Source: a bacterium (lineage in GTDB: Bacteria; Patescibacteriota; Minisyncoccia; Phycocordibacterales; UBA5272). From it: a stretch of 35,012 nucleotides of DNA. Under the pieces are notes generated by a model. That model worked only from the letters and a program-made list of their open reading frames with translations, ran no database searches and was not told where the DNA came from. A program made the position numbers and the translations under genes. Positions 8,566-33,218 of the stretch are shown here, piece by piece; the stretch's first letter is position 1, and each line of letters begins with the position of its first letter. Location: the NCBI GenBank assembly GCA_043742265.1, contig JAYTYR010000055.1, positions 1 through 35,012 of the forward strand, given 5' to 3'.

Positions 8566-10137
8566 TTACTTTTTGGAATTTAGTATATCTATAAAGAGAG
8601 AAGGGTTACCAGCTCCCTTACTTTCTTTCATGCATTGACCCACAAAGTACATTAAAAGCTTGTCGTTACCAGTCAGGACTTCCCTCCATTGTGTTGGATT
8701 TTCTTTTATTACTTTATGTACTATTGATATCAAATCTTCTTTGTTATTTTTTTGTATAAAGTTATTTTCTTCAGCTATTTCTTTTGCTTTTTTATTTATA
8801 CATTCTTTATGATTATTTGTTATAAAAGATAATAAATCTTTTACTCCACTGGATGATAACTCACTTTTATCTAGCATTGTTATGATATCTATCATCTGAC
8901 TTTTGCTTGGTAGCAAAGAATAGATATTGTTAGAAACTTTACTAGCTATACCTACGAAGTCATTTAACAAATAATTAGCTAAAGAGATTTTGTATTTGTT
9001 ATCTAATTTTATTTCATTATTACTATGAGTATTCATCTCTGTAGAGTTTATAGCGGATAGATAATAGTTACCGAGGATCACGTCGTCAAGTAGCTGTGTT
9101 ATTTGCTTATTTTGTAAGCCTATTTCTGTGAAAAGAGTACGACGCTCATCAGGAAGTAATTCTATGCCTGACTCTGGAGATTGTATCCATGCTAATATAG
9201 CAGGTATGTCAAAGACCTCATAGGTATAGATTTTTGGTAGATCAGGATCAGGAAAGTATCGATAGTCATCAGCATTTTCTTTTTTTCTCTGACTAAAGGT
9301 CTCTCTTTTATTTTCATCCCATCCTCTGGTTTCTTGTACTACTTGTTTACCATTTTCTAGTAGATCTATGTGTCTATCTACTTCATGTCGTATCGCGTCC
9401 TCGACAGAGCGAAAGGAATTTATATTCTTTACTTCACATTTAGTGCCATATATACACTTGTCTAGAGTGACTGATATGTTAACCTCCACACGCATTTGAC
9501 CTTTCTCCATATCAGCATCTGAAGCATCTAGTGTACGCAGTATACGACGTAGCTCACGTGCAAATTCTCCACTAGCTGCCGCCGCATCTTCTACATTATC
9601 ATAAGTGTGAGCATCAGTAACCAGCTCCATGAGAGGCACCCCGGCGCGATTAAAGTCTATCAGAGTATATGCACCTTTGTCATGAGTACTTTTCGCTGTG
9701 TCCTCTTCCATGTGTATACGAGTGAGAGATATGGGTATGTTTTTGTTAACCATTTCACCATTTACTACATTATTTACATTTGCTACTATCTCACCACCAT
9801 TGATGATTGGGTATTTGTACTGAGTGATTTGATAAGCTTTTGGTATATCAGGATAGAAATAATTTTTTCTATCAAACTCGATAAAGTTGGATATATTTTT
9901 ATAAGTACCGTCCTCTTTTTCTTGTTCATTTCTCACAGCCAGACCGATAGATATCATCTTTTTTAAAGCTTCATGATTTGCTACAGGTAAGGTACCAGGA
10001 TGCGCCATACATATAGGACAGACATTTTTGTTGGGTGTGTCCTCTAGTGGCACATTGGGACAGCCACACCACATCTTACTCTTTGTATTGAGCTCGGCAT
10101 GTATCTCTAGTCCTATCGTTACATAGTATTTGTTCAT
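8566..10137 (-). CDS. gatB: Asp/Glu-tRNA(Asn/Gln) amidotransferase subunit B
   Basis: MNKYYVTIGLEIHAELNTKSKMWCGCPN...CPICMAHPGTLPV...RAGVPLMELVT...YRYFPDPDLP are GatB signatures. I trimmed the start to the ATG at 10137 because the first 31 codons of the track ORF are the antisense of a tRNA. Confidence 0.9.
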   Translation of the reverse strand: MNKYYVTIGLEIHAELNTKSKMWCGCPNVPLEDTPNKNVCPICMAHPGTLPVANHEALKKMISIGLAVRNEQEKEDGTYKNISNFIEFDRKNYFYPDIPKAYQITQYKYPIINGGEIVANVNNVVNGEMVNKNIPISLTRIHMEEDTAKSTHDKGAYTLIDFNRAGVPLMELVTDAHTYDNVEDAAAASGEFARELRRILRTLDASDADMEKGQMRVEVNISVTLDKCIYGTKCEVKNINSFRSVEDAIRHEVDRHIDLLENGKQVVQETRGWDENKRETFSQRKKENADDYRYFPDPDLPKIYTYEVFDIPAILAWIQSPESGIELLPDERRTLFTEIGLQNKQITQLLDDVILGNYYLSAINSTEMNTHSNNEIKLDNKYKISLANYLLNDFVGIASKVSNNIYSLLPSKSQMIDIITMLDKSELSSSGVKDLLSFITNNHKECINKKAKEIAEENNFIQKNNKEDLISIVHKVIKENPTQWREVLTGNDKLLMYFVGQCMKESKGAGNPSLFIDILNSKK

Positions 10138-10146
10138 AAAAATTTG

Positions 10147-10228
10147 TGCCCGGGGCGGGACTCGAACCCGCACGAGGAAACCTCGAGAGATTTTAAGTCT
10201 CTTGCGTCTACCATTCCGCCACCCGGGC
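10147..10228 (-). tRNA. tRNA-Leu (anticodon UAA), long variable arm, no encoded CCA
   Basis: The reverse complement is GCCCGGGTGGCGGAATGGTAGACGCAAGAGACTTAAAATCTCTCGAGGTTTCCTCGTGCGGGTTCGAGTCCCGCCCCGGGCA. The cloverleaf was checked by hand: acceptor GCCCGGG/CCCGGGC, anticodon stem AGAGA/TCTCT, T-arm GCGGG-TTCGAGT-CCCGC. Confidence 0.85.
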
Positions 10229-10341
10229 ATATCCAGTGGATGTATATTATTATACTACATTTTTAATAAAATCAGAAATGTGTTACAATAAAGTAACTTT
10301 CCCCTTTGTTTGTGAGAAGTATGATAGGAATAAGTTTATTT

Positions 10342-10413
10342 GATGCGGTGGCGAAATGGTAACGCTTCGGTCTGCAAAACCGACATGCGCGGGTTCGATT
10401 CCCGCCCGCATCT
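10342..10413 (+). tRNA. tRNA-Cys (anticodon GCA), discriminator U, no encoded CCA
   Basis: GATGCGGTGGCGAAATGGTAACGCTTCGGTCTGCAAAACCGACATGCGCGGGTTCGATTCCCGCCCGCATCT. The anticodon stem is TCGGT/ACCGA with loop CTGCAAA. Confidence 0.85.
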
Positions 10414-10471
10414 CCCGTGTGTCAGCAGTATATAGTAATCGTTGATTGCGTTTCTTTTTTATAAAAGTTTA

Positions 10472-10480
10472 TGTTATAAT
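10472..10480 (+). promoter_or_regulatory. extended -10 promoter TGTTATAAT upstream of tRNA-Lys
   Basis: An exact TGnTATAAT lies 11 nt before the mature tRNA 5' end. Confidence 0.5.
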
Positions 10481-10491
10481 ACTTGACATCA

Positions 10492-10567
10492 GCCCTTATA
10501 GCTCAGTTGGTAGAGCAGCTCCCTCTTAAGGAGACGGTCGTAGGTTCGAATCCTACTGGGGGCACCA
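10492..10567 (+). tRNA. tRNA-Lys (anticodon CUU), CCA encoded
   Basis: GCCCTTATAGCTCAGTTGGTAGAGCAGCTCCCTCTTAAGGAGACGGTCGTAGGTTCGAATCCTACTGGGGGCACCA. The T-arm is GTAGG-TTCGAAT-CCTAC and the anticodon loop is CTCTTAA. Confidence 0.9.
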
Positions 10568-10631
10568 TGGTAACCAACTCACGTTAGCATACACAGAAAG
10601 CTAATAGCCACTTTAATTTTTCTTTAGCTTG

Positions 10632-10640
10632 TGTTATAAT
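10632..10640 (+). promoter_or_regulatory. extended -10 promoter TGTTATAAT upstream of tRNA-Leu(UAG)
   Basis: An exact TGnTATAAT lies about 42 nt before the tRNA. Confidence 0.45.
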
Positions 10641-10682
10641 GTTTATATAGAAAAGAGAAGGGGCTTTAGCTCTGAGACATAC

Positions 10683-10767
10683 GCCCGGGTGGCGAAATTG
10701 GTAGACGCACTTGCCTTAGGAGCAAGCGAGGCAACTCATGAAGGTTCAAGTCCTTTCCCGGGCACCA
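10683..10767 (+). tRNA. tRNA-Leu (anticodon UAG), long variable arm, CCA encoded
   Basis: GCCCGGGTGGCGAAATTGGTAGACGCACTTGCCTTAGGAGCAAGCGAGGCAACTCATGAAGGTTCAAGTCCTTTCCCGGGCACCA. The anticodon stem is CTTGC/GCAAG with loop CTTAGGA. Confidence 0.9.
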
Positions 10768-10842
10768 CGTCGTGATAGCACGAGGTCTATTATGCTTTAA
10801 CAAAAAGTTAAAGCTAAGTCTGTTTTATTTGTGACTAAAATA

Positions 10843-10851
10843 TGTTAAAAT
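10843..10851 (+). promoter_or_regulatory. candidate island-1 operon promoter (TGTTAAAAT, extended -10-like)
   Basis: A TGn+TAAAAT sits about 60 nt upstream of the first island ORF (ATG 10914). Confidence 0.35.
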
Positions 10852-10913
10852 CATAATGTGAGCTAAAAAATATTTTTAGTTTTTCAGATAAAATAGATTT
10901 AAGTATCCATGCC

Positions 10914-11399
10914 ATGAACGAGATTGTAAAAAATGAAAAAGTAATTTTTCAAAATGGTAATCAAGGGCTGTATTTCATGCATGTGCTCTGCTCATCAGAA
11001 GTCTTGATTGGGGAAAATATTTACCTTGAACTTATAAAAAAACTAGATCTAAGCAGGGTTGAAATAAGTATAATTGAAAAAATAAGATATTACATATGGA
11101 TGCTTAGAAGAAACTATATTGCTAAAAATGATATTTATACGTATAAAAAATATCTCCCTAGAATACTTAAAGATATTCTTATTCTAGAAAAAGTAATTGA
11201 CTACTCAAATATTTCAGAGTTCAATAACAGACAAATAATAAATCTGTACATTGAAAACCATAAAAGTGATTTAAGTGTGACAGAAATTTATCTTTTAGTT
11301 AATATAATTAATTTAGATAAAATAAAAGAAATTGAAATTGAGTCGACTTTAACTTTGATTTCAAATTTAGTAAATATAATTACATGGAAAAACTTATAG
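10914..11399 (+). CDS. hypothetical protein, first gene of the island-1 operon
   Basis: 161-aa ORF with helical-looking, Ile/Leu/Asn/Lys-rich composition. It overlaps the next ORF by 16 nt. No family was recognised. Confidence 0.45.
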   Translation: MNEIVKNEKVIFQNGNQGLYFMHVLCSSEVLIGENIYLELIKKLDLSRVEISIIEKIRYYIWMLRRNYIAKNDIYTYKKYLPRILKDILILEKVIDYSNISEFNNRQIINLYIENHKSDLSVTEIYLLVNIINLDKIKEIEIESTLTLISNLVNIITWKNL

Positions 11400-12233
11400 C
11401 AGAAATAAAAACGCCACAAACAATGAGCGTCGAGACTAGTGTTCAAAATGAAATAGACAGAATAAACTTCGCTTTATTGTCTGGTTCAATTAGTGTTTTA
11501 GATTCTGCAAAATTAATGGATGTTTTAGTAAAAACAACTTTAGATTCAATATTAGATTCATTCAGCCTTAAGATTGGGATAGATAAAAAAACTCCCATTT
11601 GGACTTTTTCTGTTTGGGTCACCATCTAGAAACTTAATGTTACCCAATTCCGACCTCGATATTGGAATTGTTTTTAACCACGACACAGATGAAGTTTTTA
11701 AAGAGAGAATAAGGTTGAAGTTTAAATCACTTCCGTTTGATAAAATTGATATAGCTAGCTGGTCTACTATTGAAGAAATGATCGGGAGAAATAAAGTTAA
11801 CACAATAGAGACAAATAAAGCTATTGACACAGAGTTTTCTGGTGGAAGTATAGAAATAGCTGAAGATTATTTAACTAATGTAAGAAACCCAGATCATTTA
11901 TTTGATAAAAGACGCAGAATGATTACTGAGTTTGGAATACTGCGCTGCTTTGATTATATCTCAAAAGTTACAGAATATGGACCAAATTTAAAATACGACT
12001 TTGGAGCTAGTAGAGATATCGTTTTTCTAGACTGGTACTATTTGTTGAGGAGTGGTGAACCAACATATGAAAACCCATTTTACCTAGGAGGATTAGAGGC
12101 TTTGTTAAAAGAATCTCACATAAGTGAACAGGAGAAAAACTTCCTACAGCAAAGCATAGAACTTATTTTAACAGTTAAGTTTTCACTTGTTTATGAAAGT
12201 AAGAAAGTTGGTAAAAAAATTTGCTCTATCTAA
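11384..12233 (+). pseudogene. GlnD/GlnE/DUF294-type nucleotidyltransferase, interrupted by a frame change at an A7 tract (11585-11591)
   Basis: ORF 11384-11629 stops 8 nt before ORF 11637-12233. Extending the second frame upstream to 11583 gives ..KKLPFGLFLFGSPSRNLMLPNSDLDIGIVFNHD, the Pol-beta NTase G[GS]x9-13[DE]h[DE]h motif. The track ORF cuts this motif at its internal Met. Downstream, PNLKYDFGASRDIVFLDWYYLL resembles the K..GG.RDI.f..W block of GlnD/GlnE/DUF294_C. Removing one A from the A7 tract joins the two frames. Confidence 0.6.
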
Positions 12234-12673
12234 ATGACTTAAGTTTAAGTGAATGTTTCACTGTTGCAAAAAAAGCACTTACTAAAATGGGCATTAAAGA
12301 CGAAGGTGATTTTAAAGAAAAATACTATAAAGCAAAATTAATGCTAGGTATTGTAGTATCAAAAATATTTAACATAATAATACTGGAAGATGAAGAGTTA
12401 AGAAGTGTCTGGTCAATGGCAGAGTCAAAAACACAAATAGATCCTGAATTAGAAACTTGTTTATTAGATTTAAGTTGGCACAACTTAGTTCCATTTCTTG
12501 TAAAATCAAAATCGCCTGATATTTTACAATACATAGTTTTAAAAATTCTAGCTTTGAAAAGCCGTGAGTATTTACTTAGAATGGCTAGCGAGAATAAATT
12601 TATCGATGAACATACTAGGTATGCATTACTTGATTCTTCATTGCCAGAGAAATATAAAATAAAATTAAGATAA
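12221..12673 (+). CDS. hypothetical helical protein, possibly the C-terminal continuation of the nucleotidyltransferase
   Basis: 150-aa ORF with only a TTG start. It overlaps the preceding ORF around a second A7 tract (12213-12219). One extra A there would fuse the frames (..VGKKNLLYLNDLSL..). Confidence 0.45.
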   Translation: MLYLNDLSLSECFTVAKKALTKMGIKDEGDFKEKYYKAKLMLGIVVSKIFNIIILEDEELRSVWSMAESKTQIDPELETCLLDLSWHNLVPFLVKSKSPDILQYIVLKILALKSREYLLRMASENKFIDEHTRYALLDSSLPEKYKIKLR

Positions 12674-12676
12674 ATT

Positions 12677-13426
12677 ATGATAAAAATACTAAGTTTAAAT
12701 TTGTGGAGATATAATGATTTTGATATTAGATTTGAAAATTTATTAAAGGTTATTTCTAATAAAAATCCAGACATCATTTTGTTGCAGGAATCGCAAATTG
12801 ACCAATCTTTTTCACGTCTGTCTCAGGTGGAAATAATAAAAAATAAAATAAATGAAGTAATTTCTAAAGATTATAAATTTTCACATTACTCAACTGTATA
12901 TTTGAAAAAATATCAAAAAGGCGAAAAATTAGAAATACCAGTGCAACATGGCATGGGTATAATTTCTAAATATCCTGTCGTTAATTCTTTTGAGTATTAT
13001 TTAAATATAATTGATAAAAATCCAGAGCCTAGATCTATATTTTGTTTTGATTTAGAGATTGAAGATCATATACATAAATTTGCAAATGTCCACTTTACAA
13101 ATAATGACATTGAAGCTCCAAAAGAACTGCAAGAGTTTTTAGGTTTTATTGAAAATAGAAATGAAAGGAGGATAATGTGTGGAGATTTTAATATTTTTAA
13201 TCTATCAGAATATCTGAAAAATAATAAAGATTACACACTTTCAACAAAATTTAAAAAGTATATATTATATGAAAAAGATAACGGAACCTTGGACTATGTT
13301 CTCTTGCCTAAAGAGTATAATTTTATAGATTTCGAATGTTTAAATGACTACTTATCGGACCACAAGGGAATATTTGCGGTAGTACAAGAAAAGAAATTGA
13401 AACAGAAACCAAAGAAAAAGTTATGA
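12677..13426 (+). CDS. endonuclease/exonuclease/phosphatase (EEP, DNase I-like) family protein
   Basis: 249 aa. EEP catalytic blocks occur in order: ILSLNLW (N), PDIILLQES (E), NVHFTN (H), MCGDFNIF (D,N) and LSDHKGIFA (D,H). No signal peptide is present. Confidence 0.8.
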   Translation: MIKILSLNLWRYNDFDIRFENLLKVISNKNPDIILLQESQIDQSFSRLSQVEIIKNKINEVISKDYKFSHYSTVYLKKYQKGEKLEIPVQHGMGIISKYPVVNSFEYYLNIIDKNPEPRSIFCFDLEIEDHIHKFANVHFTNNDIEAPKELQEFLGFIENRNERRIMCGDFNIFNLSEYLKNNKDYTLSTKFKKYILYEKDNGTLDYVLLPKEYNFIDFECLNDYLSDHKGIFAVVQEKKLKQKPKKKL

Positions 13427-13474
13427 GTAAAAGTAATTTTTTAGGAAATAAAAAACAAAAGAAAATAAAGTAAT

Positions 13475-13996
13475 ATGGAAAAAGAAAATATGATAAACAT
13501 AAAACCATTTCAAGAAACTCTTGGTGAAGGTATATGCGGTCCAGCAGTGTTAAAGATGATTTTGATGTATTACAAAATACCAGATGGTAATAAATCAGAT
13601 TTAGAGTTGGCAAAGATTTGCGGAACTAATGATTTGGGAACAACAACCACACAGTTATTCAATGCTATAAAAAGTTTTGGATTAAGATGTGAGGAAAAGT
13701 TTAATGCAGAATTTGTAGATATTAGACCTGCATTAGATAGAGGTAATCCTGTTATAGTGGATTGGTTTACACCTGGTAGAAAAGATGCACCAGAAGGAGA
13801 AATGCCAGACGGACATTATTCAATAGTTGTTAATTTAGATGACAAAAACATCTATTTGCAAGACCCAGAAATTGGTGGAATGAGAACTATACCGAGAAAT
13901 AATTTCTACAAAGTTTGGTTTGATTTTGATGAGCCATACACTGAATATATTGTAGATACTAAAAATGTATTTTTAAGATATATGATAGAAGTATAA
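13475..13996 (+). CDS. stand-alone papain-fold peptidase, C39-like (Peptidase_C39_2-type)
   Basis: 173 aa. The putative Cys box is PFQETLGEGICGPAVLKMILMYY (Q...CG.a.l.m...yy) and the putative His box is DGHYSIVVNLDDKNIYLQDP. There is no ABC-transporter or TM part. Confidence 0.6.
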   Translation: MEKENMINIKPFQETLGEGICGPAVLKMILMYYKIPDGNKSDLELAKICGTNDLGTTTTQLFNAIKSFGLRCEEKFNAEFVDIRPALDRGNPVIVDWFTPGRKDAPEGEMPDGHYSIVVNLDDKNIYLQDPEIGGMRTIPRNNFYKVWFDFDEPYTEYIVDTKNVFLRYMIEV

Positions 13997-14004
13997 AAAG
14001 TTTA

Positions 14005-14486
14005 TTATTGACCGTCGATACGACGACGTCTATCGTCTAGAATCTCGTCCTCAAACTCAAAATACAACGTACCTTGTGGACGTCTTTGGTACCCTAATAG
14101 CTCCATCGCAAAAGTAGATAGGCTACTTATTTTGTCACCAATTTTTATCTTATCGTCCTCTACAACTTCAGCTACGATATTTCGATCTCTTGTATATGTG
14201 AGTTTCGATCCCACAGGGATACCGTATTGTACAAAATGGAATCTTGAACGTCTTTCTTTGACTTCATCAACTTCTTTTTCTTGTTCTGGAGTTAATTCAC
14301 TGTCTATCTTAGTTTCTTTAAGCTCAACACGTTTAAGTGCTAGGGTCGCATATTCAGGATTCATTTTAAAGAATTCTCGACTATCTCTCGCTCTACGGTC
14401 TGCAAATATTGAATGTAGCCATGAGTAAAGCCAATCTTAATATACTCTGGCATGGACTGATTTGTTAAAATGTAAATAATATTCAT
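14005..14486 (-). pseudogene. T5orf172/MUG113-type GIY-YIG-like family gene, disrupted (internal deletion plus frame change), or a 41-aa plus 119-aa coupled pair
   Basis: The ATG at 14486 opens MNIIYILTNQSMPEYIKIGFTHG, matching the family N-motif (YIltN.smP...KIG.T), and stops after 41 aa. The frame of ORF 14005-14364 extends upstream as ..SWLHSIFADRRARDSREFFKMNPEYATLALK, matching the family's ..lH.aFad.R....REFF...pe.a motif. About 35 aa normally found between the two motifs are missing. The stop of the first frame overlaps the ATG of the second (ATGA). Confidence 0.5.
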
Positions 14487-14492
14487 GATAGT

Positions 14493-14501
14493 ATTCTAAC
14501 A
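14493..14501 (-). promoter_or_regulatory. extended -10 promoter (TGTTAGAAT) 6 nt upstream of the ATG at 14486
   Basis: The reverse complement reads TGTTAGAAT-actatc-ATG, the same layout as the core-gene promoters. Confidence 0.45.
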
Positions 14502-14541
14502 TTTTTTGTTGCAATAAACTACAACACTTTATAGCCCATGT

Positions 14542-14615
14542 TGGCTGGTGGACTAGGAATCGAACCTAGATACGCAGCTTCAAAGGCTGCTGTCCTACCT
14601 TTAGACGATCCACCA
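14542..14615 (-). tRNA. tRNA-Gln (anticodon UUG), CCA encoded
   Basis: The reverse complement is TGGTGGATCGTCTAAAGGTAGGACAGCAGCCTTTGAAGCTGCGTATCTAGGTTCGATTCCTAGTCCACCAGCCA. The anticodon stem is GCAGC/GCTGC with loop CTTTGAA. Confidence 0.9.
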
Positions 14616-25446: not shown

Positions 25447-26526
25447 GTGATAATAAATAAAATCTTTGCGAAAATAATACACAACACTAGACTATCTCTA
25501 CTTCGCAATGATATAGGCATAGATCTCGGCACTGCTAATATACTGGTATATGTGAAGGGGCTGGGCATAGTGATCAATGAGCCCTCAGTAGTCGCGGTAA
25601 ATAATAAAACCGAACGCGTAGTCGCTGTAGGCCTAGAGGCCAAGAATATGCTAGGACGTACACCCCAACATATACGCACCGTAAGGCCAATAGTGGATGG
25701 AGTAATAAGCGATTATGAAGTAACAGAGGAAATGCTCTCGTATCTAATAAACAAGGCTAATAATATGCAGAAGAAAATGTTTCGTCCGCGAGTAGTGATA
25801 GGCATACCTTGTGAGATTACAAACGTGGAGACCAGAGCAGTACATGATGCTGCGACAGCAGCTGGCGCTAGTGACGTATATATTATCGAGGAGCCTATCG
25901 CTGCGGCTATAGGTGCTGGACTACCTATACATGAAGCAGAAGGGGTAATGATAGTGGATATAGGTGGGGGTACTACTGATGTAGCTGTGCTATCCCTCGG
26001 CGGTATGGTAAAGTCTAAGAGTATAAAATTAGCAGGAGATAAACTAAACAGTGATATTATTAGCTTTATAAAAGAAGAATACAAAATGTCTATAGGAGAG
26101 AAGACGGCAGAGCGTATCAAAATGACTATAGGCAGTGCTATGCCTGTAGGAGATATATCAGAAGCTGTAATCAAAGGCCGTGACTTGGTCACAGGATTAC
26201 CAAAAGAGATTACTCTTTTGGATAATGATATACGGGGGGCTATGTATCAAACTATCGCTTATATAGTAGACACGGTGAGGGAAGTAATAGAAAATACACC
26301 TCCAGAAATATTAACAGACGTAATGAAAAATGGCATGACATTGACTGGAGGTGGAGCCTTGATCAAAGGCTTGGATACATTATTAGAGATGCAATTAAAG
26401 TTACCAGTTAGAATAGCCGAAGATCCTCTATCTAGTGTAGTGCGTGGATGTGGTATAATACTAGATGACTTGGACAGATACCAAGGTCTAGTCATAGATA
26501 CAGAAAATGCAGCCATATTACGCTAA
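25447..26526 (+). CDS. mreB: rod-shape-determining protein MreB
   Basis: 359 aa. DIGIDLGTANILVYVKG...EPSVVA...IEEPIAAAIGAGLPI...MIVDIGGGTTDVAVLSLGG...LTGGGALIKGLD are the actin-fold MreB blocks. Confidence 0.9.
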   Translation: MIINKIFAKIIHNTRLSLLRNDIGIDLGTANILVYVKGLGIVINEPSVVAVNNKTERVVAVGLEAKNMLGRTPQHIRTVRPIVDGVISDYEVTEEMLSYLINKANNMQKKMFRPRVVIGIPCEITNVETRAVHDAATAAGASDVYIIEEPIAAAIGAGLPIHEAEGVMIVDIGGGTTDVAVLSLGGMVKSKSIKLAGDKLNSDIISFIKEEYKMSIGEKTAERIKMTIGSAMPVGDISEAVIKGRDLVTGLPKEITLLDNDIRGAMYQTIAYIVDTVREVIENTPPEILTDVMKNGMTLTGGGALIKGLDTLLEMQLKLPVRIAEDPLSSVVRGCGIILDDLDRYQGLVIDTENAAILR

Positions 26527-27295
26527 AAAGAAAAATAGTAACATTTTATTTTATATACAATTAATATTTATAATACTGATCTGTATATTTTGGTCTCGTA
26601 TACGTCACACGATAGCACCCACCATTTCGGATAAACTGGTAAAAGTTTTTAATAGCAGTAATATTGTTGTAAGCAAGTATAATGATTTTTCTCTATATAT
26701 TAAAGATAGAAATGTGCTTAATGATACACTGAATAAGCTGTCTATTGATAATATGTATTTAGAAAATCAAATAGCCAAGTATAAATATAATGAGTCTCAA
26801 GATAAACTCAAAAATGAAATGGCAGATAATGGCAAGATAGATAATATAATAGCATACAGCTTGGGGTCCAAGGATAATTTTATATATGATAATTTGATAA
26901 TCAATGTAGGATATAGAGATGGCGTCTCTATGGATGCTATAGTATATACTAGGGGTATGCAGCCAGTAGGTCGCGTAGATCAAGTTAATAATAATACATC
27001 ACGAGTGAGATTATTATCCATCAGTGGAGCAGAAATAGAGGCTATATTAGAAATTAATAATGAAAAAGTCACACTCATAGGCCAGGGTGGAGGTGAATAT
27101 ATTACCAAAATTAAAAATAGATTACTATCTGACGGATATGGTGTAGGTAATAAAGTTCTGTTAGGCGAAGACACCAGCATGGTAATAGGTGAAATAATAC
27201 ATATAGATGCAGTCAAAGATGAAGATACCAGTTTGGTGCATGTACGGGGATATTATAATCCAGCCAGTCAATCTATATTTTTCGTTGATAAATAA
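26507..27295 (+). CDS. mreC: rod-shape-determining protein MreC
   Basis: 262 aa with an N-terminal TM, a coiled coil and then a beta-rich domain (..INVGYRDGVSMDAIVYT..G..VGRVDQVNNNTSRVRLL). Its position between mreB and mrdA supports the call. It overlaps mreB by 20 nt. Confidence 0.7.
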   Translation: MQPYYAKKKNSNILFYIQLIFIILICIFWSRIRHTIAPTISDKLVKVFNSSNIVVSKYNDFSLYIKDRNVLNDTLNKLSIDNMYLENQIAKYKYNESQDKLKNEMADNGKIDNIIAYSLGSKDNFIYDNLIINVGYRDGVSMDAIVYTRGMQPVGRVDQVNNNTSRVRLLSISGAEIEAILEINNEKVTLIGQGGGEYITKIKNRLLSDGYGVGNKVLLGEDTSMVIGEIIHIDAVKDEDTSLVHVRGYYNPASQSIFFVDK

Positions 27296-27299
27296 TAAC

Positions 27300-27443
27300 A
27301 TGATAATCAAAATAATATTTTATATATGTATCTGTGTAGCTATAATTATCGATTTACTTTTTAGTGATACTTTACCTTATTATTTTTTGATTATTATTTT
27401 TATTTATTTCTTATATCAAAAGGCCATTGTATATTTTAGATAA
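27300..27443 (+). CDS. tiny hydrophobic ORF at the mreD position (47 aa)
   Basis: MIIKIIFYICICVAIIIDLLFSDTLPYYFLIIIFIYFLYQKAIVYFR. The call rests on position only, and it is far shorter than canonical MreD. Confidence 0.3.
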   Translation: MIIKIIFYICICVAIIIDLLFSDTLPYYFLIIIFIYFLYQKAIVYFR

Positions 27444-27492
27444 AAATACATAATAATTATTAATTTACATATGGAAATAATATATTAAAATA

Positions 27493-29241
27493 ATGTTTAA
27501 AATCTTTAATAGAAAGAAATATAGCGGTTTAAAGTATGATAGCTTTGGTGAAATATTTCCAGAAGAGATACTATTAGACGCTACCAATATACCTAATTTT
27601 AATATGCAACAGTTAGAAGGATTCTTGGTGCATAAACTTAATAAAGCCCTAGCGTTATCAATGGGTGTATTGTTCTTTTTTATACTGTCTCTTTTTATTT
27701 ATAAAATGTATGCAATGCAAATAGTAGATGGAGACAAGTATAATCAATTAGCAGAACGTAATAAATTTAGAGTGGCACATATATTCGCACGGCGTGGAGC
27801 GATAATTGATCGTAACGGCACATTATTAGCTTGGAATACAGCATCCACCACCAGCTCTGTTATTAAAAGAGAATATATAGATAAAGAAGGCTTTTCTACT
27901 TTGCTAGGCTATGTCAGCTATCCTCGTCTGGATAAAAGTGGGGTGTTTTGGCAGAGTGAGTATATAGGCAAGGACGGTATAGAAAAGCAATATCAAACAA
28001 AATTAAATGGAACTCTAGGGACAGAGATCTATGAAGTTAGGGCCACCGGTGAAGTGTTGCCAGGTAAAATCACTAGTAATAGTATAGAGGGTGAAGCTGT
28101 CATTCTTAACATAGACGCAAATCTTCAAAACAAAATGTTTAAATATATAAAAGAGCTAGCTATTGATAAAGGTTTTAATGGTGGAGCAGGAGTGATGATG
28201 AATGTAAATACAGGTAAAGTAGTAGCTATCACCAGTTATCCAGAATATAATAATAATATAATGTCTAACGCTACTAGTAGTGAAGATAAATCTTTGATCT
28301 CAGAATGGCTAATAGGTAAAGATAATAAATTTACCAATAGAGCGATATCAGGACTATATACTCCAGGATCAACAGTGAAGCCTTTCATGGCTTATAGTGC
28401 TCTAGTAGAAGGTATTATAGATCCTTATAAAAATATATTGAGTACAGGCAAATTAGTAATTAAAAATAAATATGGTGGTCCTGATACCGTGTTCAAGGAT
28501 TGGAAAGCTCATGGCTATGTGGATATGAGACACGGCATAGCTGTATCATCCGATGAATACTTTTATCAAATAGGTGGTGGCTATGGAGATCAAAAGGGTC
28601 TAGGCATAGACAATATTTATAAATATATGAGTCAATTCGGTTTTGGATCCGATACGGGTATAGATTTACCAAATGAGCATCATGGCATAATACCAAATAG
28701 AGAATGGAAACAGAAAATGTATAAGGACGGCGATTGGAAGCTAGGAGACACGTATCATACGTCTATCGGTCAATACGGATTTCAAACTTCACCGATAGAG
28801 CTGCTACGCTCAGTGAGTGCCATAGCTAATGGCGGTACATTGGTCACTCCACATGTATATAGCGAAATACATACAGATAATAATTTTAAAAAAAATATAA
28901 ATAATAGTAGCCTGAACAAAGAAAGTATAAATCTAAATCTAGATCAGAGTAAATTAAAAGTTGTACAAGAGGGTATGAGACTAGCAGTGACAGATCAAAA
29001 TATAGGAACAGTGAAATCATTGTATGTGAAAGGTATAGATGTAGCTGCTAAAAGTGGCACAGCAGAGCTGGGGGTAAAAAAGGATAGAGTTAACTCTTGG
29101 GTCATGGGATATTTCCCTTATGAAAAGCCAGAATATGCTTTCGTCGTCATAATGGAGAGTGGCGATGTGAAGAATCTGACGGGAGCGAGTAGTGTAATGA
29201 GGAAAGTTTTGCAATATTTGGTAGAAAATCCAATACCTTAG
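27493..29241 (+). CDS. mrdA: penicillin-binding protein 2 (class B transpeptidase)
   Basis: 582 aa with an N-terminal TM. It carries SxxK (PGSTVKP), an SxN-like motif (SSD) and KSG (AKSGTAE). It sits in the mreBC context. Confidence 0.85.
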   Translation: MFKIFNRKKYSGLKYDSFGEIFPEEILLDATNIPNFNMQQLEGFLVHKLNKALALSMGVLFFFILSLFIYKMYAMQIVDGDKYNQLAERNKFRVAHIFARRGAIIDRNGTLLAWNTASTTSSVIKREYIDKEGFSTLLGYVSYPRLDKSGVFWQSEYIGKDGIEKQYQTKLNGTLGTEIYEVRATGEVLPGKITSNSIEGEAVILNIDANLQNKMFKYIKELAIDKGFNGGAGVMMNVNTGKVVAITSYPEYNNNIMSNATSSEDKSLISEWLIGKDNKFTNRAISGLYTPGSTVKPFMAYSALVEGIIDPYKNILSTGKLVIKNKYGGPDTVFKDWKAHGYVDMRHGIAVSSDEYFYQIGGGYGDQKGLGIDNIYKYMSQFGFGSDTGIDLPNEHHGIIPNREWKQKMYKDGDWKLGDTYHTSIGQYGFQTSPIELLRSVSAIANGGTLVTPHVYSEIHTDNNFKKNINNSSLNKESINLNLDQSKLKVVQEGMRLAVTDQNIGTVKSLYVKGIDVAAKSGTAELGVKKDRVNSWVMGYFPYEKPEYAFVVIMESGDVKNLTGASSVMRKVLQYLVENPIP

Positions 29242-31298: not shown

Positions 31299-32429
31299 AT
31301 GAAAACAACTCCAACACTTATAAAATGGCCTGGGGGCAAATCAAAAGAATATGAGCAAATTAAAAATCTGATACCAAAATATGATCGATTTTTCGAGCCT
31401 TTTTTTGGTGGAGGTGCTGTTTTTTTAAACTTAAAACCCAAAAAAGCAATCATAAATGATATCTGTGAGGAACTGATAGGATTTTATAAATTTGTAAAAG
31501 GTGGAAAAGATAAAAAAGAATTTAAAAAATGTCTTTACGACTATGTTGATAATTGGGAGAAAATACCAAAATATTTAAAAATTTTTGAAGACGATTTAAT
31601 CTCTCTTTATAATGATTTTAGGGATGACAAAAAAACGCAAGCTGAAGTCAAAGAAATTATAACTAAAAAATTAAAACAAAAAGAAGAAAAATTTAATGGA
31701 CTTTTTTCAAAAGATTTTTGTCTTGACCCAAATAACTTACTTGAAGAAATTATTAAAAATCTTATTTCAAAAATAAACAGGACTAAGGCAATAGAGCAAG
31801 ATAGAGGTATTTTACCAGAGGGTGATTTACATAAAAATATTGAAACAGCTTTTAGAAGTGGTTTTTATATGCACTTTCGAAATGTTATGAATGAGAGTGG
31901 GGAAAAATATAAAATCTCATTAGCGAAAAAAATCTCAAACTATTACTTTATAAGAGAATTTTGTTACGCTTCAATGTTTAGGTTTAATGCAAGTGGGGGT
32001 TTTAATATTCCTTACGGAGGTATTGGATATAATGACAAAAACTTCAGAAGCAAAGTAGATTATATTTTTAGTCAAGAAGTAGAAAACTATTTTAAGAATA
32101 CAAAAATCTGTAATACGGATTTTGAAAATATATTTAAAGAAAATGATTTAATTTCATCTGATTTTATATTTTTAGATCCACCGTATGATACGGATTTTAG
32201 TGATTATGAAAAAGCAAGTTTTGATAAAAAAGATCAAGAAAGGTTGGCAAATTGTCTGTATAAAACAAAAGCAAAGTTTATCTTAATTATTAAAAAAACT
32301 CCTTTTATTTTTAATCTATACAATAATAAAAAAGATATTAAAATTGATAGTTTCGAAAAAACTTACTTATATAATGTTAAAGGTAGAAACGATAGAGATG
32401 TTGAACATCTTGTAATTTACAATTTTTAA
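31299..32429 (+). CDS. D12-class (Dam-like) N6-adenine DNA methyltransferase
   Basis: 376 aa. IKWPGGKSKEY...FFEPFFGGGAVFLN gives the SAM motif FxGxG, and FIFLDPPYD gives motif IV (DPPY). It is longer than E. coli Dam because of a Lys/Glu-rich insertion. Confidence 0.85.
   Translation: MKTTPTLIKWPGGKSKEYEQIKNLIPKYDRFFEPFFGGGAVFLNLKPKKAIINDICEELIGFYKFVKGGKDKKEFKKCLYDYVDNWEKIPKYLKIFEDDLISLYNDFRDDKKTQAEVKEIITKKLKQKEEKFNGLFSKDFCLDPNNLLEEIIKNLISKINRTKAIEQDRGILPEGDLHKNIETAFRSGFYMHFRNVMNESGEKYKISLAKKISNYYFIREFCYASMFRFNASGGFNIPYGGIGYNDKNFRSKVDYIFSQEVENYFKNTKICNTDFENIFKENDLISSDFIFLDPPYDTDFSDYEKASFDKKDQERLANCLYKTKAKFILIIKKTPFIFNLYNNKKDIKIDSFEKTYLYNVKGRNDRDVEHLVIYNF

Positions 32430-33218
<789 letters not shown>

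Follow-up and report, generated by a model that had tools for sequence, protein, structure and literature searches.

A probable inactivated copy of a rare two-nucleotidyltransferase and EEP phosphoesterase cassette in a Patescibacteria contig

Contig JAYTYR010000055.1 of a Patescibacteriota bacterium was analysed over its entire length of 35,012 bp, to which we refer as the window. Between a tRNA-Leu and a tRNA-Gln gene, it carries a closely packed series of plus-strand open reading frames (ORFs) that an initial annotation had read as five products, among them a nucleotidyltransferase (NTase), an EEP-fold enzyme and a C39-like peptidase. The coordinates, tRNA flanks and gene spacing on which that reading was built hold up in ARAGORN, Rfam and the list of ORFs; the interpretation of the genes has to be revised. 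The sequence shows the stretch 10860-13426 to be a copy, inactivated not long ago, of a rare accessory cassette made up of a small NTase, a large NTase and an EEP phosphoesterase. More tentatively, we propose that the intact cassette writes and erases a modification; the explanation as a whole we consider reasonably probable. Judging from its sequence, the window copy is non-functional and has the EEP gene as its sole intact member. It cannot be expected to work because the small NTase is without its catalytic domain and the large NTase would need two frameshift corrections. The link between NTases and EEP protein is real, is found intact in other genomes and is undescribed, and the cassette belongs among the Pol-beta NTase modules.

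One large nucleotidyltransferase gene in three pieces

Between the two tRNA genes lie six plus-strand ORFs (10914-11399, 11384-11629, 11637-12233, 12221-12673, 12677-13426 and 13475-13996); two of their junctions are overlaps, of 16 and 13 nt, and the other three are gaps, of 7, 3 and 48 nt. The second, third and fourth, which code for 81, 198 and 150 amino acids (aa), are the pieces of a large GlnE/DrrA-like NTase pseudogene at 11384-12673 (plus strand). In three-frame translation, the ORF at 11384-11629 stops just past a run of seven adenines (A7) at 11585-11591 (plus strand), and the NTase signature FGSPSRNLMLPNSDLD starts in the next frame, upstream of the ATG assigned to the 198-aa NTase ORF. 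That ORF ends just past a second A7 run at 12213-12219 (plus strand), and the 150-aa ORF carries on in another frame. Removal of one A at the first site (A6: ...GID KK LPFG...) and addition of one A at the second (A8: ...VGKK NLLYL...) open the frame throughout and give a 429-aa protein. The 25 intact proteins that this fusion matches are 392-470 aa long (24 of them 423-470 aa) and align with 35-48% identity, 90-100% coverage and E-values down to 3e-114; intact proteins of 425-470 aa align with 40-48% identity and 93-100% coverage. The fusion is colinear with intact homologues over both frameshift junctions, and retains all but one of the 32 invariant positions and all but one of the 32 nearly invariant ones. 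It follows from these matches and from the colinearity that the three ORFs, previously counted as separate products, are a single NTase gene of ~430 codons, with the supposed helical protein as its C-terminus. As far as its sequence tells, the large NTase is one gene that was recently broken twice by ordinary homopolymer indels. Its start overlaps the upstream small NTase by 16 nt, as in intact loci.

We rejected sequencing error as an unlikely source of the breaks. A Logan assembly (L001, SRR22198268) is 100% identical to the window over 10738-14548, both A7 sites included; it is a separate assembly, possibly of reads in common with the NCBI contig. The identity at both A7 sites argues that the lesions are not the artefact of one assembler, and the truncation of the small NTase is a deletion. 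The contig of a second run (L002) covers 12404-14588 only.

Both NTase families carry the Pol-beta signature, hG[GS]x9-13Dh[DE]h with a third carboxylate on a following strand. In the large NTase, the motif FGSPSRNxMLPNSDLD and the FDKIDI aspartates are invariant in alignment A1 and are present in the window copy after frame correction. An intact homologue, P0001, scores 31.2 bits with Pfam NTP_transf_2 (cut-off 21), 29.5 with Polbeta (cut-off 26.9) and 23.6 with DUF294 (cut-off 21); the NTase fragment of the window scores 16.6 bits with GlnD_UR_UTase, below the cut-off of 21. The AlphaFold model of P0001 (pLDDT 89.4) has an NTase core followed by a helical domain, a fold of the GlnE/GlnD type. 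Its best Foldseek match is the AT-N domain of GlnE (1v4a; E 2.9e-5, TM score 0.54/0.55 over 381 columns), followed by DrrA (6yx5_B) and GlnE AT-C (3k7d). The DUF294 score and the structural matches to GlnE and DrrA bear out the earlier description as a GlnD/DUF294-type NTase and place the enzyme in the GlnD/GlnE/DUF294 type. The conserved motif NLKYDFGxSRD of the large NTase also seems to resemble the K-x3-GG-x-RD motif of GlnD and GlnE. A uridylyltransferase is among the weak sequence matches in the PDB, and no specific named family for the large NTase was found in Pfam or NCBIfam.

The likeness to GlnE and GlnD, and to the Pfam families DUF294 and GlnD_UR_UTase, thus consists of a Pol-beta GS...DxD core with a large helical domain behind it. 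The large NTase differs from these enzymes in that it shares only 12-15% identity with them, forms a single module of 425-470 aa whereas GlnE is a tandem pair, has neither the HD nor the ACT domain found in GlnD, and is always coupled either to a small NTase and an EEP protein or to a radical SAM enzyme. NCBIfam GlnD models reach 12-20 bits against cut-offs of 519-799; neither the architecture nor the partners of GlnE/GlnD are seen here. As had been noted for the window, nitrogen-regulation genes are missing: no glutamine synthetase or PII gene occurs in any neighbourhood examined.

The small nucleotidyltransferase and the EEP phosphoesterase

Upstream of the large NTase lies what is left of a small, ANT/KNTase-like NTase, truncated at its 5' end (10860-11399, plus strand; ORF 10914-11399, 161 aa), of which the helical domain alone remains. 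The 161-aa protein, to which no identity had been given, corresponds to residues 79-239 of proteins of 239-242 aa, that is, to the 3' two-thirds of a second NTase gene. With the 239-aa homologue P0034 as tblastn query, residues 61-239 align to 10860-11396, so that homology reaches back to residue 61 at position 10860. The catalytic N-terminal ~60 residues, including the GS...DxD part, have been deleted. In full-length small NTases this N-terminus reads YGSVKQKEDFxxxSDLDF, with a subsequent KIDLS, and the family has an invariant IFQNGNQG...H motif of its own (alignment A2).

The model of P0034 (pLDDT 88.6) has the two-domain fold of aminoglycoside NTases, and its top Foldseek matches are ANT(3'')(9)/AadA and ANT(4'); against 7uy4_B, 5lpa_A and 6nmk_A, E-values are 7e-4 to 2e-3 and TM scores 0.34-0.48. 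No ANT model of NCBIfam or Pfam matches the small NTase. With ANT(3'')(9)/AadA and with ANT(4')/KNTase the small NTase shares the NTase domain and helical bundle (TM 0.43-0.48), but identity is 8-15%, no ANT model is reached at cut-off, the IFQNGNQG...H motif is private to the family, and a larger NTase is coupled to it. The large NTase scores 16.6 bits with NCBIfam ANT(9), against a cut-off of 340.

The third cassette gene (12677-13426, plus strand) encodes an apparently intact EEP-fold phosphoesterase of 249 aa, which matches Pfam PF03372 with an E-value of 2.3e-15 and 57.3 bits (cut-off 24.5). It is 45-58% identical to the EEP proteins encoded directly behind the large NTase in five other loci (L003, L005, L007, L015 and L020). 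Residues N8, E38, H139, D170, N172, D206, D228 and H229 are invariant in alignment A3 and present in the window copy. Against the PDB, the matches are weak and generic: bacterial sphingomyelinase is the best of them (E 2e-4), followed by ExoIII (~1e-2) and TDP2 (~0.2), and CCR4 is also found. With such matches, an attempt to assign a subfamily by profile was dropped. The cassette EEP shares the fold and all catalytic residues with TDP2 and other EEP phosphodiesterases; its sequence similarity to TDP2 is marginal.

The cassette in other genomes

Neighbourhoods of homologues were gathered by exact-protein look-ups and by scans of genomes and metagenomes, and were compared by tblastn and clustering. 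In the arrangement that we call type A, genes for a small NTase (~240 aa), a large NTase (~430-460 aa) and an EEP protein (~235 aa) lie on one strand; the overlap of 16-25 nt between the two NTase genes is conserved, and the EEP gene follows directly. Besides the window, type A is found in eight other distinct loci, mostly from Patescibacteria, and intact versions free of frame breaks do exist, with five loci fully intact; OY969926.1:1,223,377-1,236,624 and Ga0070416_107456:27,629-40,945 are examples of intact loci. Its members are the window, L003, L005/L021, L007 (a Patescibacteria-like chromosome of 1.27 Mb), L015, L020 and L025, together with the decayed L012 and L034. With the window counted, the EEP gene is present in 8 of 8 distinct type A loci that have enough downstream flank, and the small NTase in 9 of 9 that have upstream flank; the L025 contig holds the small and the large NTase and ends inside the latter. 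Contigs of equal size in three protein searches suggest further cases of co-location. Of the association read from the window, the linkage of NTase and EEP is real and conserved, whereas the C39 gene is missing from each of the 23 further distinct loci that were compared, 8 of them of type A.

Decay has affected four of the nine type A loci. L012 has breaks in all three genes. In L034 (6243-7732, and likewise in L035), a tRNA-Val is followed by a non-coding stretch of ~490 nt, then by no more than the final 61 codons of the large NTase gene, and then by an intact EEP gene. These codons are in frame and 62% identical to P0001, and L034 is an independent decay of the cassette. A break near residue 128 divides the small NTase of L015 (6296-7016) into ORFs of 149 and 105 aa; intact in this locus are the large NTase, the EEP gene and, further downstream, a NUDIX gene. 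Three of the type A loci have a tRNA gene immediately upstream, a different one in each case: Leu (window), Thr (L025) and Val (L034).

In a second arrangement, type B (L009, L010, L017, L019, L022-L024 and L026), the large NTase stands beside a radical SAM protein of 537 aa, with neither small NTase nor EEP. The radical SAM genes (L009 4210-5823, L010 4744-6357, L017 8350-9966, L019 5377-6989) encode proteins that are 52-79% identical to one another, the copy in L019 being split in two; searches of PDB and NCBIfam with this protein returned only a generic match to the CxxxCxxC core.

Type C comprises distant pairs of small and large NTases (22-28% identity) in Actinobacteria (L013, L014, L028-L030), among them Rhodococcoides kyotonense (L013, NZ_FZOW01000025.1) and a metagenome-assembled genome (MAG) of the Acidimicrobiia. 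In 4-5 loci the pair is clustered with genes for a GFO/IDH/MocA oxidoreductase, a His_Phos_1 phosphatase, a 2OG-Fe(II) oxygenase and a DegT aminotransferase, joined in L013 by a PhyH dioxygenase. In L029 the His_Phos_1 gene overlaps the small NTase gene by 4 nt. This gene set looks like amino-sugar or aminocyclitol chemistry, and would amount to an uncharacterised pathway in a cultured strain.

Genes for nucleotide house-cleaning enzymes and kinases (NUDIX, Ham1/ITPase, Maf, inorganic pyrophosphatase, SKI/KTI12-like) were seen a few kb downstream in several loci (L003 8397-9882, L005 9659-10915, L015 9124-9681, L017 10493-12256). None of them is conserved in sequence between loci, and they may reflect coincidence in small genomes. 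Mobile or defence genes are also found among the neighbours: TrwC and ArdA in L020; a type IIG restriction-modification gene, a T5orf172-helicase and HNH in L019; RhuM and SocA in L005. The context and the decay of type A fit a patchy accessory element under fluctuating selection; they do not demonstrate a role in defence.

Searches for a named family or system

Pfam, NCBIfam, PADLOC and PHROG hold no specific family or system for either NTase or for the EEP protein, and the PDB names no such cassette. In PADLOC-DB 2.0, neither the EEP protein nor the C39-like peptidase has a match, and the NTases match only the minimal-NTase models PDC-S09 (E 3e-5 to 8e-3). A named defence system was therefore rejected, with the T5orf172 neighbour alone fitting a candidate (PDC-S57). 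The earlier statement that no named system could be recognised agrees with these results from PADLOC, NCBIfam and Pfam. Relatives of the large NTase were absent from IMG/VR, GenBank phages, PLSDB plasmids and BFVD structures, and PHROGs gave nothing for the NTases or the EEP protein, which led us to reject a phage or plasmid origin. Literature searches returned no description of an NTase and EEP system, although their coverage was incomplete, so that novelty is not proven.

Among characterised systems, MntA-HepT (MNT-HEPN), a type VII toxin-antitoxin, resembles the cassette in its minimal NTase core, which is also reflected in the weak PDC-S09 matches of both NTases. However, P0001 scores 31 bits with MntA_antitoxin, short of the cut-off of 60, and there is no separate HEPN gene. 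Neither alignment A1 nor A2, covering both NTase families, has a conserved R-x4-6-H column, and a HEPN RNase motif in the helical domains was rejected on this ground. A toxin-antitoxin pair of type VII logic, with the EEP protein as toxin and the NTases as antitoxin, is disfavoured, since in the window and in L034 the EEP gene has stayed intact although both NTases are dead. Pfam and NCBIfam gave no RNA-binding domain for the cassette proteins.

Neighbouring genes and layout of the locus

The region is bounded on the left by tRNA-Leu(tag) at 10683-10767 (plus strand; ARAGORN, and Rfam tRNA with 58 bits), 93 nt upstream of the start of the cassette remnant, and on the right by tRNA-Gln(ttg) at 14542-14615 (minus strand; ARAGORN and Rfam). 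It had been called an AT-rich island. Its GC content is indeed lower than that of the contig (0.295 vs 0.349), and ~2% of windows of this size in the rest of the contig are equally low; the AT-richness is real, but modest. No convincing att-like direct repeats were found at the tRNA borders, and for both reasons an integrative island with att repeats was rejected. The contig has 1-kb windows at least as AT-rich as this region at 31500-32500 (GC 0.246) and 26500-27500 (GC 0.279). Hidden RNA genes and regulatory elements in the region were likewise rejected, as the Rfam scan gave the tRNAs alone and promoter and terminator scans stayed at background level.

Behind the EEP gene lies an apparently intact gene for a stand-alone C39-like (papain-fold) cysteine peptidase of 173 aa (13475-13996, plus strand). 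It matches Pfam PF03412 with 43.5 bits (cut-off 22; E 3.5e-11) and PF13529 with 41.9 bits (cut-off 24; E 2e-10), and its triad Cys21/His114/Asp130 is invariant in the family alignment. Passing both Pfam C39 models and keeping the Cys/His/Asp triad, it resembles stand-alone peptidases of the Peptidase_C39_2 type, a family with 226 cluster representatives at E<=1e-10, mostly of 150-180 aa and stand-alone. C39 domains that process bacteriocins carry an ABC-transporter moiety; the peptidase of the window has none, with NCBIfam ABC-transporter models at 13-17 bits against cut-offs >500 and no adjoining transporter gene. Inspected by eye, its N-terminus does not resemble a signal peptide. A partial match to the endolysin family phrog_10051 of PHROG (E 9e-8), over positions 305-409 of a model of 455, hints at a possible relationship of the C39-like family to cell-wall peptidases. 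The closest homologue (62% identity) lies among unrelated housekeeping genes. For this reason, and because the gene is missing from all other cassette loci, we rejected the peptidase as a cassette member; contrary to the initial annotation, it is part of no conserved unit.

On the minus strand, 14005-14486 holds a T5orf172/GIY-YIG remnant (PADLOC candidate PDC-S57) of which an N-terminal stub of 41 aa and a C-terminal part of 119 aa survive. The stub ORF (14361-14486) covers positions 2-25 of Pfam T5orf172, the 119-aa ORF covers positions 112-216 of 221 of PDC-S57 (E 4.9e-23), and the middle ~80 residues are absent. The EEP and C39-like domains and the T5orf172-like remnant had all been recognised earlier, and Pfam matches confirm each of them. 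Neither the C39-like peptidase nor the T5orf172 remnant is related to the cassette, next to which they lie in a variable, tRNA-flanked stretch.

At the right border, the Logan contig L001 is identical to the window through the 3' end of tRNA-Gln (TGGCTGG; 14542-14548), after which it runs into different DNA (L001 3812-4571) with a DUF4238 fragment (Pfam E 1.5e-10) in place of the tRNA. This switch is either a strain-level rearrangement or insertion, or an assembly branch. Divergence past the 3' end of tRNA-Gln in another sample suggests that the site varies between strains. To the left, 10146-10767 is a cluster of four tRNAs (Leu, Cys, Lys, Leu). The mechanically called GatB ORF (8566-10230, minus strand, 554 aa) overruns tRNA-Leu(taa) at 10146-10228 (minus strand); the real GatB protein most likely begins with the MNKYYVTIGLEIH methionine, which lies near 10137, ~31 codons further downstream.

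Discussion

The data suggest a tentative general scheme for the intact cassette, drawn by analogy with better known enzymes. In it, the translationally coupled pair of NTases would work jointly, probably in a heteromer, because KNTase-type enzymes build active sites across subunits. The pair would move a nucleoside monophosphate (NMP) from a nucleoside triphosphate onto a hydroxyl group of an acceptor other than a nucleic acid. Two kinds of acceptor are conceivable: a tyrosine, serine or threonine of a protein, as for GlnE, DrrA and MntA, and a small molecule resembling a sugar, as for the ANT enzymes. The metal-dependent EEP enzyme would then hydrolyse the resulting phosphodiester, and so reverse or limit the modification. 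We weigh protein and small-molecule acceptors about equally, since the GlnE/DrrA fold of the large NTase points to the former, and the ANT fold of its small partner, together with the setting in Actinobacteria, to the latter.

Three considerations favour a write/erase module. The close structural relatives of the NTases all transfer NMP to hydroxyls of acceptors other than nucleic acids: GlnE, DrrA and MntA modify protein tyrosines and ANT enzymes sugar hydroxyls, and the product is a phosphodiester. Diesterase chemistry is at home in the EEP fold, in which TDP2 cleaves the bond between tyrosine and a 5'-nucleotide (tyrosine-O-phosphate-5'-nucleotide), the same linkage as in Tyr-NMP. Finally, a comparable gene pair exists in Legionella, where the GlnE-like AMPylase SidM (DrrA) is encoded beside its eraser SidD, which hydrolyses the Tyr-AMP bond (PMC12409994). 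There, too, a GlnE-like NTase, the second-best fold match of the large NTase, stands next to a metal-dependent phosphoesterase. The fold of SidD is PP2C-like rather than EEP, however, DrrA is a secreted effector with GEF and P4M domains, and SidM/SidD comes without a second NTase.

Several observations weigh against this scheme. No EEP-fold deAMPylase is known according to a review of 2025 (PMC12409994). The EEP protein is only generically similar to any solved EEP structure, so that its proposed role as eraser is chemistry by analogy. The large NTase also stands beside a radical SAM enzyme in type B loci without small NTase and EEP, which means that the EEP protein is not obligatory for it, and the distant actinobacterial pair is found in clusters of the amino-sugar type, again without EEP. 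The impression that NTases are lost more readily than the EEP gene rests on four decayed loci, is not significant, and involves NTases that are about three times the mutational target; we therefore dropped decay order as evidence for NTase toxicity. Moreover, the frame-corrected large NTase keeps nearly all conserved residues, which makes its rescue by phase variation or slippage possible.

The alternative that survives best, which we regard as possible but on the unlikely side, holds that the intact cassette nucleotidylylates an amino-sugar or aminoglycoside-like small molecule, for its modification or activation or for resistance, and that the EEP protein is a phosphatase or phosphodiesterase of the pathway. 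The aminoglycoside NTases are the best structural matches of the small NTase, the distant NTase pair lies inside the conserved actinobacterial cluster in 4-5 loci, and the 4-nt overlap of phosphatase and small NTase in L029 parallels the layout of NTase pair and phosphoesterase; the pairing with a radical SAM enzyme in the variant loci also fits. These distant relatives point to small-molecule chemistry rather than defence. However, the Patescibacteria cassettes are without any sugar-pathway genes, the large NTase is far closer to GlnE/DrrA (TM 0.40-0.54) than to ANT (TM ~0.2-0.26), and NCBIfam ANT models stay far below cut-off.

For defence or conflict, the neighbourhoods give mixed hints (TrwC/ArdA, restriction-modification genes, RhuM/SocA, tRNA-adjacent sites). 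A more specific form of the write/erase scheme would make the cassette a hitherto undescribed module of Patescibacteria for conflict or regulation, in which a heteromeric NTase pair nucleotidylylates, for example AMPylates, a cellular or phage protein, the EEP protein is the dedicated eraser, and type B and the actinobacterial versions are sister systems. We think it doubtful that all of this applies; if the EEP protein did erase AMPylation, it would be the first EEP-fold deAMPylase.

It is rather improbable that the cassette acts on RNA ends, with the NTases tailing 3' ends of RNA or tRNA, as toxins like MenT/AbiEii or in repair, and the EEP protein serving as a CCR4/ExoIII-like trimmer or 3'-phosphoesterase. 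Pol-beta NTases do include tRNA-modifying toxins and tailing enzymes, and EEP proteins include deadenylases and nucleases that clean 3' ends. Weak PDB sequence matches to a uridylyltransferase and to CCR4 and the location of some loci among mobile or defence genes would agree with such a role. Yet the top fold matches are NTases of proteins and small molecules, with uridylyltransferase (TUTase) and poly(A) polymerase at a match probability of <=0.3, and the cassette proteins show no RNA-binding domain. We consider an RNA-end module weaker than the write/erase module.

A different question is whether the window copy is dead or merely switched. The large NTase might still be expressed if its A7 tracts were phase-variable or corrected by transcriptional or ribosomal slippage. 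Both breaks do fall in A7 runs, all three fragments are open in the right frames, 31 of the 32 invariant residues are kept and the EEP gene is intact. Against this, a +1 and a -1 correction, independent of each other, would both have to occur in a single molecule, the deleted catalytic domain of the small NTase is beyond repair by slippage, and the separate Logan assembly of one run shows A7 at both sites as well. A 1-bp indel in an A-run of lysine codons is also the commonest decay mutation in AT-rich genomes. There is little chance, in our view, that the locus is switched and not dead.

Hardly credible is the reading with which the locus was introduced, a working five-gene defence or conflict operon of NTase, EEP enzyme and C39 peptidase on a tRNA-bracketed island: it can point to tight same-strand packing between two tRNAs, a GC content below the rest of the contig, the decayed defence-type gene PDC-S57/T5orf172 next door and the strain variant with a DUF4238 gene at the tRNA-Gln end, but it counts pieces of one frameshifted and one truncated gene as products, its C39 gene is missing from all other cassette loci and has its nearest homologue elsewhere, and PADLOC is empty for EEP and C39 and has only generic minimal-NTase models for the NTases.

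The window copy is a gene wreck and minor in itself. It leads, however, to a cassette of candidate-phyla bacteria that is compact and conserved and has yet to be characterised. For similar genomes it also holds a practical lesson: short, abutting ORFs on the same strand of an AT-rich genome should first be tested as a single frameshifted gene. The reuse of the large NTase with a radical SAM enzyme and the relatives in the cultured Rhodococcoides kyotonense JCM 23211 offer tractable entry points to the function of the family. If the cassette does write and erase a modification, it would add a new eraser fold to the biology of AMPylation, and a new self-contained modification module to what is found in organisms with very small genomes.

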